DNA of 64,000 bases from Candidatus Campbellbacteria bacterium (lineage in GTDB: Bacteria > Patescibacteriota > Minisyncoccia > Phycocordibacterales > EsbW-18), in the NCBI GenBank assembly GCA_016699465.1, contig CP064977.1, forward strand, positions 138,096-202,095. Reading direction: 5' to 3'. Under the pieces are notes generated by a model. The model was not told where the DNA came from and did not search any database. It saw only the letters and a list, made by a program, of their open reading frames with translations. Shown here piece by piece: positions 61,724 through 64,000 of the stretch. The position numbers and the translations under genes were made by a program. Positions within the stretch are counted from its first letter, which is position 1. Each line of letters starts with the position of its first letter.

Positions 61724-62560
61724 TTAAACGATTTTTGAAGATAGACTTGGATATTTTTTCTTTAATTCCTCTTTTTCTGCGGAGGTGAGAGCATGGAGAA
61801 CGAGGTCACCACCAATTGCGTGTGGAAGGATGAGACCTTCTGCTGAGGTGAGGCGATTGAGGTAGAGGTCACCACCAATGGAGTGCGGAAGTGTGAGACC
61901 TTCTGCTGAGGTGAGGTTGTCGAGGTTGAGGTTGCCACCAATGGATTGTGGGAGGATGAGACCTTCTACTGAGGTGAGGTTGTCGAGGAAGAGGTCGCCA
62001 CCGATTGTATGTGGGAGTGTGAGACCTTCTGCTGAGGTGAGGCTGCCGAGGTAGAGGTTGCCATCAATTGTATGTGGGAGGATGAGACCTTCTGCGGAGG
62101 TGAGGTTGTCGAGGTTAAGACTGCCACCGATGGATTGTGGGAGGATGAGGTCTTCTACGGAGGTGAGATTGTCGAGGTAGAGGTCACACTTTTTGAGTAC
62201 CACCATCATAGCAAGAGCTTTGTTGAGTTCGGGAGTTGGTCGTGTAGCGGAAAACCCAATCCACGATATGTATTCGTGTGTAAATTCAAAGTTGGCTTCC
62301 TCACCCATCAAACCACGTATACGTGTTCCTGCTTCTGCTTCAATACGAGGGAGGGTGTGTTCTTCAAAGGTAACCGGTTCGTATGCGTAGGTGAGGTACT
62401 CTTGTTGGAGGTGTGTGGTGTTTTGTTGTGCTGTGCGTACCGCTTCGTGTGCATCGGGTGTTCCTTCGTGCATGAGGGTGTCCGCTGCCTGTCGCAGAGT
62501 AGCAACCGCGTCTTTCCACGCGTGGTACTTCATCATGAGTTCTGGGCAGGAGGTGGGCAT
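61724..62560 (-). CDS. Leucine-rich-repeat paralog A: conserved ~130-aa N-terminal domain plus 20-21-aa LTSAEGLxLPxSIGGxLxL repeats
   Basis: Internal repeats in the translation; N-terminal domain nearly identical to paralog B. Confidence 0.6.
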   Translation of the reverse strand: MPTSCPELMMKYHAWKDAVATLRQAADTLMHEGTPDAHEAVRTAQQNTTHLQQEYLTYAYEPVTFEEHTLPRIEAEAGTRIRGLMGEEANFEFTHEYISWIGFSATRPTPELNKALAMMVVLKKCDLYLDNLTSVEDLILPQSIGGSLNLDNLTSAEGLILPHTIDGNLYLGSLTSAEGLTLPHTIGGDLFLDNLTSVEGLILPQSIGGNLNLDNLTSAEGLTLPHSIGGDLYLNRLTSAEGLILPHAIGGDLVLHALTSAEKEELKKKYPSLSSKIV

Positions 62561-62563
62561 AGG

Positions 62564-63712
62564 TTAGGGGGTGGGTTTGATTGTTATATGTGGGTACTTC
62601 GCGCGTAGTGTGTCTCGTTCGGTGGAGGTGAGTTTGCTGAGATAAAGACCACCACCAATGGAGTGTGGGAGGATGAGATCTTCTACTGAGGTGAGGCGGT
62701 CGAGGTAGAGGCTACCACCGATGGAGTGTGGGAGTGTGAGACCTTCTGCGGAGGTGAGACTTCCGAGGTCGAGGAAACCACCAATAGAGTGTGGAAGTGT
62801 CAGACCTTCTGCGGAGGTGAGATTGTTGAGATAAAGGCCACCGATTGTATGTGGGAGGATGAGACCTTCTGCTGAGGTGAGGCGATTGAGGTAGAGGTCA
62901 CCACCAATGGAGTGCGGAAGTGTGAGACCTTCTGCTGAGGTGAGATTGTCGAGGTAGAGGCCACCACCAATGGAGTGTGGGAGGATGAGACCTTCTGCGG
63001 AGGTGAGGCGGTCGAGGTAGAGACCACCACCAATGGATTGTGGGAGGATGAGACCTTCTACTGAGGTGAGGTTCTCGAAGTTGAGGTTGCCACCGATTGT
63101 GTGTGGGAGGGTGAGACCTTCTGCGGAGGTGAGATTATTGAGATAAAGGCCATCGATTGATTGTGGGAGGATGAGACCTTCTGCGGAGGTGAGGCGGTTG
63201 AGGTTAAGACTGCCATCGATTGATTGTGGGAGGATGAGACCTTTTGTGGAGGTGAGGTTCTCGAGGTTGAGGCCGCCACCGATTGTGTGTGGGAGTGTGA
63301 GACCTTCTGCGGAGGTGAGGTTGTTGAGGTAGAGGTCACACTTTTTGAGTACCACCATCATGGCAAGAGCTTTGTTGAGTTCGGGAGTTGGTTGTGTAGT
63401 GGAAAACCCAATCCACGATATGTATTCGTGTGTAAATTCAAAGTTGGCTTCCTCACCCGTCAAACCACGTATACGTGTTCCTGCTTCTGCTTCAATACGA
63501 GGGAGAGTGTGTGCTTCAAAGGTAACCGGTTCGTATGCGTAGGTGAGGTACTCTTGTTGGAGGTGTGTGGTGTTTTGTTGTGCTGTGCGTACCGCTTCGT
63601 GTGCATCGGGTGTTCCTTCGTGCATGAGGGTGTCCGCTGCCTGTCGCAGAGTAGCAACCGCGTCTTTCCACGCGTGGTACTTCATCATGAGTTCTGGGCA
63701 GGAGGTGGGCAT
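62564..63712 (-). CDS. Leucine-rich-repeat paralog B (longer repeat array)
   Basis: Same N-terminal domain; 62193-62560 and 63345-63712 are near-identical at the DNA level. Confidence 0.6.
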   Translation of the reverse strand: MPTSCPELMMKYHAWKDAVATLRQAADTLMHEGTPDAHEAVRTAQQNTTHLQQEYLTYAYEPVTFEAHTLPRIEAEAGTRIRGLTGEEANFEFTHEYISWIGFSTTQPTPELNKALAMMVVLKKCDLYLNNLTSAEGLTLPHTIGGGLNLENLTSTKGLILPQSIDGSLNLNRLTSAEGLILPQSIDGLYLNNLTSAEGLTLPHTIGGNLNFENLTSVEGLILPQSIGGGLYLDRLTSAEGLILPHSIGGGLYLDNLTSAEGLTLPHSIGGDLYLNRLTSAEGLILPHTIGGLYLNNLTSAEGLTLPHSIGGFLDLGSLTSAEGLTLPHSIGGSLYLDRLTSVEDLILPHSIGGGLYLSKLTSTERDTLRAKYPHITIKPTP

Positions 63713-63715
63713 GGG

Positions 63716-64000
63716 TTAGGGGGTTGGTTTGATTGTTATATGTGGGTACTTCGCGCGTAGTGTGTCTCGTTCGGCGGAGGTGAGGTTCTCGAGATAAAGG
63801 CCACCACCAATGGAGTGTGGGAGGATGAGACCTTCTACTGAGGTGAGGCGGTTGAGGTAGAGGCTACCACCAATGGAGTGTGGGAGTGTGAGACCTTCTG
63901 CGGAGGTGAGACTCTCGAGACTGAGGAAACCACCTATGGATTGTGGGAGGATGAGACCTTCTGCGGAGGTGAGATTGTCGAGACTGAGATATCCACCAAT
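63716..64000 (-). CDS. Leucine-rich-repeat paralog C, 3' partial (runs off the window)
   Basis: Same repeat DNA continues to the window end; stop codon at 63716. Confidence 0.5.
   Translation of the reverse strand: MGGYLSLDNLTSAEGLILPQSIGGFLSLESLTSAEGLTLPHSIGGSLYLNRLTSVEGLILPHSIGGGLYLENLTSAERDTLRAKYPHITIKPTP

Follow-up and report, generated by a model that had tools for sequence, protein, structure and literature searches.

The last part of the 64,000-nucleotide (nt) stretch of Candidatus Campbellbacteria DNA analyzed here (hereafter the window) carries a tandem array of minus-strand genes, whose products combine a nearly constant N-terminal domain (N-domain) with a variable number of 21-amino acid (aa) repeats, named here after their LTSAEGL core, and a conserved C-terminal cap. 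The paralog proximal to the neighboring gene rnhB, geneA (61724-62560, 278 aa), is listed in NCBI as a hypothetical protein (QQR82690.1, IPJ70_01075). Its N-domain (aa 1-126, 62183-62560), for which the structure is taken from the AlphaFold model of geneB described below, is followed by six 21-aa units of the form LxLxxLTSAEGLxLPxSIGGx (61805-62182) and by a terminal partial repeat with the C-terminal tail LTSAEKEELKKKYPSLSSKIV (61724-61804), a tail type that matches the single-copy ortholog in the related locus L001. The next gene, geneB (62564-63712), is the longest paralog seen, with an open reading frame (ORF) of 382 aa, and comprises the N-domain (aa 1-126, 63335-63712), 11 full units, nine of 21 aa and two of 20 aa (62648-63334), and a terminal partial repeat with the tail LTSTERDTLRAKYPHITIKPTP (62564-62647), the type common to geneC and the other paralogs. 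The third gene, geneC, is cut by the window end and is represented by its last 94 aa (63716-64000), which hold three full repeats, so that it has at least three, a partial repeat and the tail. The N-domain of geneC lies outside the window, and N-domain identity within the window thus refers to geneA and geneB.

A preliminary description of the array had reported consecutive minus-strand genes 3 nt apart. Indeed, the ORFs show two complete genes and the 3' end of a third, and the spacers between the stop codon of geneB and the ATG of geneA (62561-62563) and between the stop codon of geneC and the ATG of geneB (63713-63715) are exactly 3 nt long. The array had also been placed downstream of rnhB, which has to be reversed: the ATG of rnhB (61131-61712, minus strand; QQR82689.1), assigned to ribonuclease HII (RNase HII) by NCBIfam with an E-value of 2e-54, is located 11 nt after the stop codon of geneA, so that the array is upstream with respect to transcription. 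Neither a promoter-like site nor a convincing terminator-like site was found within the array, and the array genes would probably be co-transcribed with rnhB. Over the whole window, a Shine-Dalgarno-like motif is present within 20 nt upstream of the start in 8 of the 43 long ORFs; given this proportion, the missing motif in the array was rejected as a sign of special translational coupling.

The DNA encoding the two visible N-domains is nearly identical, as had been described before, with 362 of 368 nt matching between 62193-62560 and 63345-63712 (six differences, 98.4% identity). This near-identity runs on upstream across the spacer into the final 57 nt of the preceding gene, which indicates that the homogenized block consists of tail, spacer and N-domain; the whole homogenized unit, including the tail of the preceding gene, measures ~1 kb. 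The six N-domain differences are not adenine-specific; the target of a diversity-generating retroelement would be marked by adenine-specific mismatches between a template and a variable repeat, with a reverse transcriptase nearby. The reported absence of a signal peptide is borne out by the hydropathy of the proteins, in which neither a hydrophobic N-terminus nor a transmembrane segment was detected (Kyte-Doolittle maximum over 19 residues of 1.25, N-terminal maximum of 0.38).

The array was initially presented as consisting of three genes, which holds for the window, but at least three more paralogs, all of them distinct, are encoded in this genome, namely IPJ70_01090 (300 aa, seven full repeats), IPJ70_01120 (321 aa, eight full repeats) and IPJ70_01125 (258 aa, five full repeats), whose N-domains share 88-97% identity with those of the window genes. 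The sequence of geneC is distinct from every other known paralog, and since it is unlike these three, the genome contains at least six distinct paralogs. The accession numbers QQR82690 to QQR82700 increase in parallel with the locus tags 01075 to 01125, and this numbering suggests that the array comprises up to eleven consecutive protein-coding genes, which may make up ~1.4% of the 811-kb genome. In all copies seen the reading frames are intact, the core of the N-domain is invariant and the C-terminal cap is kept. Assembling tandem units of 1 kb that share 98% identical blocks is difficult, and the array was judged from the assembled sequence, so that a mis-joined or over-expanded repeat has to be considered. 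However, each copy is distinct in repeat number and in sequence, no reading frame is broken, the junctions of 3 nt are precise, the source contig measures 811,376 bp, and independent assemblies show the gene (L001) as well as the tandem organization in other lineages (L005, L006), which makes an assembly artifact highly improbable.

The LTSAEGL repeat and its relatives

The tandem repeat has a period of 63 nt, as found with TRF and a repeat search, and a back-translated LTSxxEGL pattern yields 17 matches, all within 61833-63973, where 0.01 would be expected by chance. On the protein level the 21-aa unit follows the pattern L1-x-L3-x-x-L6-T-S-A-E-G-L12-x-L14-P-x-S-I18-G-G-x. When compared with the LxxLxLxxN/CxL segment of leucine-rich repeats (LRRs), the window unit has the LxL strand and regularly spaced hydrophobic residues, but the Asn/Cys ladder position is occupied by leucine or missing. 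The last, partial unit of each protein leads into the conserved C-terminal cap E[RK]xxL[RK]xKYP. The number of full units ranges from 5 to 11 among the paralogs, in agreement with the variation described previously. By contrast, the proposal that this is a contingency locus did not hold up. Expression that is switched on and off by repeat slippage would be in line with long tandem-repeat arrays and with repeat numbers that differ among the paralogs; however, the repeats are in-frame units of 63 nt (60 nt in two cases) and not short slippage-prone tracts, so that gain or loss of a unit changes the length of the protein rather than its expression. Furthermore, the units are just 64-88% identical, and neither the genes nor the 3-nt spacers contain homopolymer or short-unit tracts. 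A phase-variable locus is thus considered very unlikely.

An AlphaFold2 model of geneB, computed on an alignment of 37 sequences, has a mean predicted local distance difference test (pLDDT) value of 88.4, with 90-97 in the repeat region, where two short strands recur every 21 residues. In the N-domain of the model, the helices 6-32 and 35-60 form a hairpin, which is followed by a disordered loop (61-69), a helix (70-88), a beta-hairpin (89-103) and another helix (110-121), and the C-terminus ends with a helix at 363-372. The model thus confidently predicts a repeat solenoid, but the fold searches described below did not confirm that it is an LRR.

No match to the array proteins of the window was found in NCBIfam, PHROGs, PADLOC or among PDB sequences, and a literature search on the motif string "LTSAEGL" returned nothing. 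The FNIP family (PF05725) does not match the window proteins either, and its FGxxFN motif is absent from all units. In Pfam, geneA reaches 27.8 bits with the HNH_5 endonuclease family (PF14279; gathering threshold 27.5), which was rejected because the match covers 19 residues of one repeat (geneA residues 135-153, profile positions 14-32 of 56); geneB scores 12.8 bits. The precomputed PF14279 annotation of QQR82690.1 is therefore a false positive and could mislead automated annotation. The notion that the repeat family may be undescribed is consistent with the lack of a credible match in these collections, Pfam included, but the repeat itself is common, being matched by 863 database proteins at E <= 0.001.

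Most of these 863 proteins are ~650 aa long and stem from Patescibacteria, Minisyncoccales and metagenome-assembled genomes (MAGs) labeled "Bacilli bacterium". They contain a conserved N-terminal region of ~430 aa (with the motifs GTGWCTAGE, GDFYVYYS, PRIAIRMEG and EIRGI), followed by 8-15 LTSAEGL repeats and the same cap; examples are P0042 (L003, 3547-5463) and P0085 (L004, 8001-9983). The repeat type is identical to that of the window (40-65% identity across the repeat region). By contrast, the ~430-aa region is absent from the window proteins, and alignment of the N-terminal regions with hhalign gives a probability of 1.7%. In addition, the ~650-aa genes are single-copy with housekeeping neighbors, and small-genome Bacilli are among their carriers. 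For the ~430-aa region no match was obtained in Pfam, PDB, PADLOC or PHROG, and a search of the AlphaFold model of this family (pLDDT 85) with Foldseek gave nothing significant, the best match being MYST/GNAT-like with an E-value of about 0.5. The possibility that the N-domain of the window is a degenerate core of this family was rejected: BLASTP aligned TAQQNTTHLQQEYLTYAYEP..PRIEAEAGTRIRGL with TA..TAKTQLQ.GDFYVYYS..PRIAIRMEG..EIRGI at non-significant E-values of 0.6-5, the hhalign probability is as low as stated, and a predicted helix stands against strands.

The repeat also occurs in phages. Seven putative viral contigs of IMG/VR match the back-translated repeat pattern, one of them with a 272-aa protein in which nine repeats and the same cap follow a CxxC..CxxC head. 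Two GenBank phages match as well, EBPR podovirus 1 (JF412294.1; gene at L021 1-735) and a Vibrio phage (PP083315.1; gene at L022 2863-3498). The protein of EBPR podovirus 1 matches geneB with a tblastn E-value of 2e-23 and carries the repeat LPTSIGGSLxLSGCDLTGIT, with which it passes the thresholds of both LRR_1 (59.9 bits, gathering 20.6) and LRR_5 of the BspA type (30.2 bits, gathering 27.7). The repeats of the Vibrio phage protein read NNLTSLEGAPQSVQGNFxC and include a classical LxLxxNxL segment. Transitive homology of this kind places the LTSAEGL unit, if indirectly, in the LRR clan, as a short subtype with leucine in place of the ladder asparagine. Both phage genes are located in early or replication regions rather than in tail modules, upstream of RecT/exo in EBPR podovirus 1 and beside a DnaB-like helicase in the Vibrio phage. 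The reading frame of EBPR podovirus 1 lies at the start of the record and is unannotated.

The N-domain family

The N-domain belongs to a family of ~125 aa that starts with MP[ST]xCPxL (MP[ST]xCPxL...Y.AWK) and is followed by LRR-clan repeats and a tail containing [KH][YH]P. M1, C5, L8, W15 and G33 are invariant across the family alignment, and the N-domain differences among the paralogs of the window genome cluster in residues 84-104. An exhaustive HMMER search with the N-domain profile against 1.84 billion protein representatives recovered just four relatives outside the query group, including P0121 (E 4e-18) and P0123 (E 2e-5). Word-indexed protein searches with the N-domain returned P0009, P0127 and P0124 only, and scans of contigs from metagenome, genome and viral collections revealed no more N-domain loci. 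When the N-domains of Campbellbacteria and L005 were compared as a group with those of L006, hhalign gave a probability of 98.9% (E 1.3e-17) over 121 columns. The N-domain thus represents a real but rare and previously unnamed family, which recurs in two other uncultured lineages as tandem paralogs.

In the first of these, L005, P0121 and its tandem neighbor (437 aa) share 64% identity between their N-domains and have LTSAEGLELPQSI repeats of 19-20 aa and a tail of the YPHLIIVPTP type, and both pass the gathering threshold of FNIP (38 bits for P0121 and 32 bits for its neighbor, gathering 21). In the second, L006, five paralogs including P0123 share the head MPSTTCPQLIPLYTAWKDGL with 45-69% identity and are arranged as 3+2 genes, three of them in tandem with 3-nt gaps. 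Their repeats are bona fide bacterial-type LRRs (LRR_4 with 85 and 39.5 bits, gathering 27), and their tail is related to that of the window proteins. This combination of N-domain, LRR-clan repeats and cap is conserved while the repeat subtype changes, which is the strongest argument that the repeats of the window do the job of an LRR domain.

The five L006 paralogs (6585-15673) flank three other genes. One is an RNase HI gene, and another encodes a 657-aa AAA/STAND-like ATPase that matches AAA_5 and, weakly, nSTAND and NB-ARC. The product of the third, 663 aa in length, has no family match, but an HExxH (SHEIAH) and a vWA-like DxSxS (LDLSGS) motif were read in it by eye. Together all these genes could form a functional island.

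Variation and turnover at the dnaE-rnhB junction

Per-position entropy was determined over 38 full units from six paralogs. It is highest at the repeat positions 21, 2, 4 and 5 (1.5-2.5 bits), which are occupied by Y, N, D, S, F, W, G, E and R, and amounts to ~1 bit or slightly above at positions 13 and 17, while L1, L3, L6, T7, S8, E10, L12, P15, I18 and G20 show 0-0.2 bits. The x-L-x-L-x-x pattern is that of a beta-strand with buried leucines and exposed alternate residues, and in LRR proteins the exposed face of the beta-strands binds the ligand. In the LTSAEGL core several codons show zero synonymous variation, but the variable codons differ, a distribution that indicates, at the level of codons, that the units evolve in concert. 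Furthermore, the best-matching units are not collinear between paralogs (for example, unit 1 of geneA matches unit 11 of geneB, and unit 3 of IPJ70_01125 equals unit 4 of geneB). This suggests recombination within and between the genes, although part of these matches may be due to chance given the short units.

In the window genome, the junction between dnaE and rnhB, which starts at about 61713 and whose far flank lies outside the window, holds at least six and perhaps 11 LRR-like genes; rnhB is the conserved flank, and its synteny is seen in L001, L008, L016 and L017. The two genes are divergent at this junction. In the closest relative, L008, the flanks are 92-97% identical to the window on the nucleotide level, and the slot (9858-10000) is empty, with a 143-bp intergenic region. 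An empty slot (8252-8375) is also found in L016, an NCBI Campbellbacteria MAG of the L001-like clade. L001 itself, with flanks that are 82-85% identical, has one copy in the slot (1005-1289), which encodes 215 aa with three full repeats and has the tail EKEELKKKYPSLSSKI, which matches that of geneA but not the type ERDTLRAKYPHITIKPTP found in the remaining window paralogs. In L017 and L018, again of the L001-like clade, the slot (6847-8392 in L017) is occupied by an unrelated 467-aa multi-pass membrane protein. The differing content among relatives indicates that the dnaE-rnhB junction is an accessory-gene slot, or hotspot, in Campbellbacteria, and that the LRR cassette is dispensable and was amplified in the window genome. 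The early suggestion of rapid diversification is thereby reinforced on the level of strains, with no copy (L008, L016, L017/L018), one (L001) or many (window).

The synonymous divergence (dS) between the N-domains of geneA and geneB is 0.024, with a ratio of nonsynonymous to synonymous divergence (dN/dS) of 0.57. Together with the homogenization of the ~1-kb unit, including the tail of the preceding gene, this agrees with the recent duplication or gene conversion that had been proposed at the outset. Between the window and L001, the N-domain has a dS of 0.235 and a dN/dS of 0.52 (0.76 for residues 67-126), compared to a dS of 0.94 and a dN/dS of 0.14 for rnhB, 0.71 and 0.06 for nusB, and 1.47 and 0.04 for rnc. 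Moreover, the G+C content at third codon positions (GC3) is 0.49-0.56 in the array genes and 0.31-0.33 in rnhB, nusB and rnc. The lower dS of the N-domain than of the flanks and the higher GC3 indicate that the cassette is younger than its surroundings and compositionally foreign, which is in line with lateral exchange among Campbellbacteria lineages and subsequent amplification at the locus. A possible alternative is codon constraint from concerted evolution.

These observations also bear on whether the array has a function at all. A laterally acquired cassette could have been duplicated by unequal crossing-over, in a neutral or selfish manner and at a slot prone to recombination, leaving redundant copies that drift under relaxed constraint. 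The very young age of the copies (dS of 0.024 between geneA and geneB), the dN/dS of 0.5-0.76, the absence of the gene from the closest relative, which shows that it is dispensable, and the unrelated cargo that the slot also takes are all compatible with such an amplification. However, all copies seen retain unbroken frames, the C-terminal cap and an N-domain with an invariant core; the variation falls on alternating positions of one predicted strand, whereas the hydrophobic core is invariant. In addition, tandem sets arose independently in two other lineages with N-domains that are 45-69% identical, indicating long-term retention, and the roughly 1.4% of an 811-kb genome that the array may occupy would be a large cost for junk. 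A purely neutral origin is therefore regarded as rather unlikely.

Several further features were observed in the window. Between rnhB and rpmF, a 170-aa ORF (60506-61018, minus strand) has a GC3 of 0.655, compared to about 0.31 in its neighbors, and no Pfam or NCBIfam match; it is kept in L001, L008 and L017 and replaced in L016 by a protein of 158 aa that weakly matches NUDIX. A 296-aa NusB-NUDIX fusion (59113-60003, minus strand), in which NusB spans residues 4-137 and the NUDIX hydrolase about 165-275, is kept in all Campbellbacteria relatives examined. An intergenic repeat of ~125 nt is located directly upstream, on the minus strand, of an SMC-like gene (57041-57166) and of rnc (58893-59017). 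The two blocks that make up this element show 85-93% identity from copy to copy; it has no Rfam match and could be a shared leader or regulatory element. The 64-kb window contains no tRNA genes, and the GC content of its first 2 kb is raised (52%).

Possible roles of the array proteins

The architecture of the array proteins can be compared with several known systems. Effectors of the YopM/IpaH type have an N-terminal alpha-helical hairpin, short LRRs (20-22 aa), a short C-terminal tail, allele-variable repeat numbers and no Sec signal. The window proteins resemble them in having a helical hairpin followed by short repeats, a short tail, a variable repeat number and no Sec signal, and the distant N-domain homologs of L006 carry LPxLPxSLxxLxCxxTxL repeats of this bacterial type. 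By contrast, the window repeats do not follow the LxxLxVxxNxL consensus, the genes form a tandem array, and no sequence or Foldseek match of the window proteins to YopM/IpaH was obtained; moreover, Patescibacteria are not known to have a type III secretion system. The internalin clusters of Listeria likewise consist of tandem LRR paralogs with a conserved N-terminal cap, variable repeat numbers and recombination between paralogs, and act as binders in host recognition, but the signal peptides, cell-wall anchors, 22-aa Asn-containing LRRs and Ig-like inter-repeat domain of internalins are all absent from the window proteins. The LxLPxxI(G) segment of the window repeat resembles the core of the BspA/TpLRR type (LRR_5, PF13306), IxIPxxVxxIG, and the EBPR phage homolog passes both LRR_5 and LRR_1; however, the window repeats have 21 aa rather than about 23-26 aa, contain an additional conserved LTSAEG turn and score below the threshold.

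Saccharibacteria (TM7) of clade T1 encode 12-24 LRR proteins per genome (COG4886), of which 1-3 copies are inserted at a housekeeping locus and for which a role in adherence or host specificity was proposed (PMC7739484). The window array is similar with respect to the small-genome episymbiont, the many paralogs, the clade-specific clusters and the insertion into an otherwise conserved housekeeping locus. By contrast, the window repeats belong to an Asn-less 21-aa LTSAEGL subtype below every Pfam LRR threshold, and are joined to an orphan N-domain without a signal peptide. The FNIP/FGxxFN LRRs of giant viruses and Dictyostelium (PF05725), for which structures of Crov588 and Crov539 are available (PMC9525666), are also short (about 22 aa), end in LP and belong to massively expanded families. 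Moreover, P0121 and its neighbor, the closest N-domain homologs outside Campbellbacteria, pass the FNIP threshold, and the weak matches in BFVD mentioned below are FNIP-repeat proteins. By contrast, the window repeats have neither the FGxxFN motif nor the phenylalanine spine, and the Crov structures were not returned by Foldseek. Two other candidates were rejected, namely a polymorphic-toxin or orphan-cassette array, because no immunity-like genes are interleaved, toxin domains are absent and the C-termini do not vary but are conserved, and a known anti-phage defense system, because geneB and members of the ~650-aa family have no match in PADLOC-DB at E <= 0.01.

With somewhat better than even confidence, we interpret the array as a repertoire of LRR-type binders that is young, laterally exchanged and subject to concerted evolution, and that probably serves to recognize a partner. 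The proteins are made in the cytoplasm, have no Sec signal and consist of a constant, helical N-domain of 126 aa, 5 to 11 LRR-clan repeats and the C-terminal cap. The solenoid would offer a surface for binding a protein or another ligand, with a specificity determined by the exposed positions 21, 2, 4 and 5 as well as by the number of repeats, while the invariant N-domain would provide all paralogs with a common function, such as docking, export or coupling to an effector. The array would then represent a set of related binders, the partner of which may be the bacterial host of the episymbiont or a phage. As for its origin, a single cassette would have been inserted into the variable accessory slot between dnaE and rnhB and amplified by unequal crossing-over between ~1-kb units; gene conversion would have homogenized the block of N-domain and tail, and recombination between the 63-nt repeats would have reshuffled the repeat region.

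The chief rival to a surface role of these proteins is an intracellular one in nucleic-acid metabolism or phage conflict, in which they could serve as LRR adaptors or decoys with RNase H or the replication machinery, or as sensors or anti-sensors in defense. It is in line with the absence of a signal peptide or transmembrane segment, and with the neighborhood of the genes: the array ends 11 nt before the RNase HII gene in the window and in L001, the trio of L006 ends 4 nt before an RNase HI gene, where the AAA/STAND-like ATPase and the HExxH/DxSxS protein follow between further paralogs, and the phage homologs of the repeat are found beside a DnaB-like helicase or upstream of RecT/exo. However, the array proteins have neither a PADLOC match nor an enzymatic or NTPase domain, and rnhB adjoins dnaE also in relatives without an array, so that the adjacency in Campbellbacteria reflects the insertion site. 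Furthermore, the pair of L005 is not located beside an RNase H gene, and the association with RNase H was noticed post hoc and in two lineages only. An intracellular role is thus considered unlikely, a little more so than neutral amplification.

Several results weigh against a repertoire of LRR-type binders. On the level of profiles, hmmscan detected no LRR-clan Pfam family in geneA or geneB at E <= 1, the repeat profile found none of the PDB sequences at E <= 10, and hhalign gave no support for an alignment of the window repeats and tail with the canonical LRR region of L006. On the level of folds, a Foldseek search of PDB with the geneB model yielded nothing significant, solved FNIP-type LRRs included, and the FNIP-repeat matches in BFVD were weak (TM-scores of 0.36-0.41, E about 1). 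Since the window proteins fail the direct LRR profiles and hhalign with L006 is unsupportive, it is by transitive homology and a common architecture that they are assigned to the LRR clan. The designation as leucine-rich repeats in the preliminary description is thus upheld by the N-domain homologs that pass LRR_4 or FNIP, the phage homolog that passes LRR_1 and LRR_5 and the AlphaFold solenoid, but not by a direct Pfam match. The main weakness concerns the location of the proteins, because a surface or secreted role without a signal peptide needs an unfamiliar export route, and no secretion genes were seen beside the array. In addition, the raised dN/dS and the variable positions could reflect relaxed constraint instead of diversifying selection, the copy number outside the window derives from the numbering of the genes rather than from the DNA, and we infer the binding, export and expression of the array proteins, as well as the role in host interaction or immunity raised in the preliminary description.

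Nevertheless, the structure of the array and the evolutionary process behind it are well documented, and the array would function in the manner of LRR paralog families from other bacteria that depend on a host, while lying outside any named family. In a broader and rather doubtful proposal, the combination of MPxxCP N-domain, LRRs and cap would constitute an unrecognized class of recognition proteins of Patescibacteria, spread as a mobile cassette and expanded into local repertoires, in which the invariant N-domain with its invariant Cys5 would act as a new module for export, anchoring or effector coupling and the shuffled LRRs would pick the host or phage. A more speculative form of this proposal adds a functional link to RNase H or the replication machinery, since in two unrelated lineages the arrays adjoin an RNase H gene (RNase HII or RNase HI) and phage homologs sit in replication modules. 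The Patescibacteria (candidate phyla radiation) live as obligate episymbionts and have genomes of ~0.8 Mb, and the locus is a concrete, testable candidate for a determinant of the host to which they attach, given its possible share of the genome, its absence from L008 despite the 92-97% identical flanks and the variation at predicted binding positions. Furthermore, the analysis defines an unnamed N-domain family and a common LRR subtype, present in more than 860 proteins, that is missed by current domain databases. Even if the idea of a repertoire is wrong, the locus would still be a clean case of concerted evolution in a reduced genome, with cassettes that turn over at one fixed chromosomal position.

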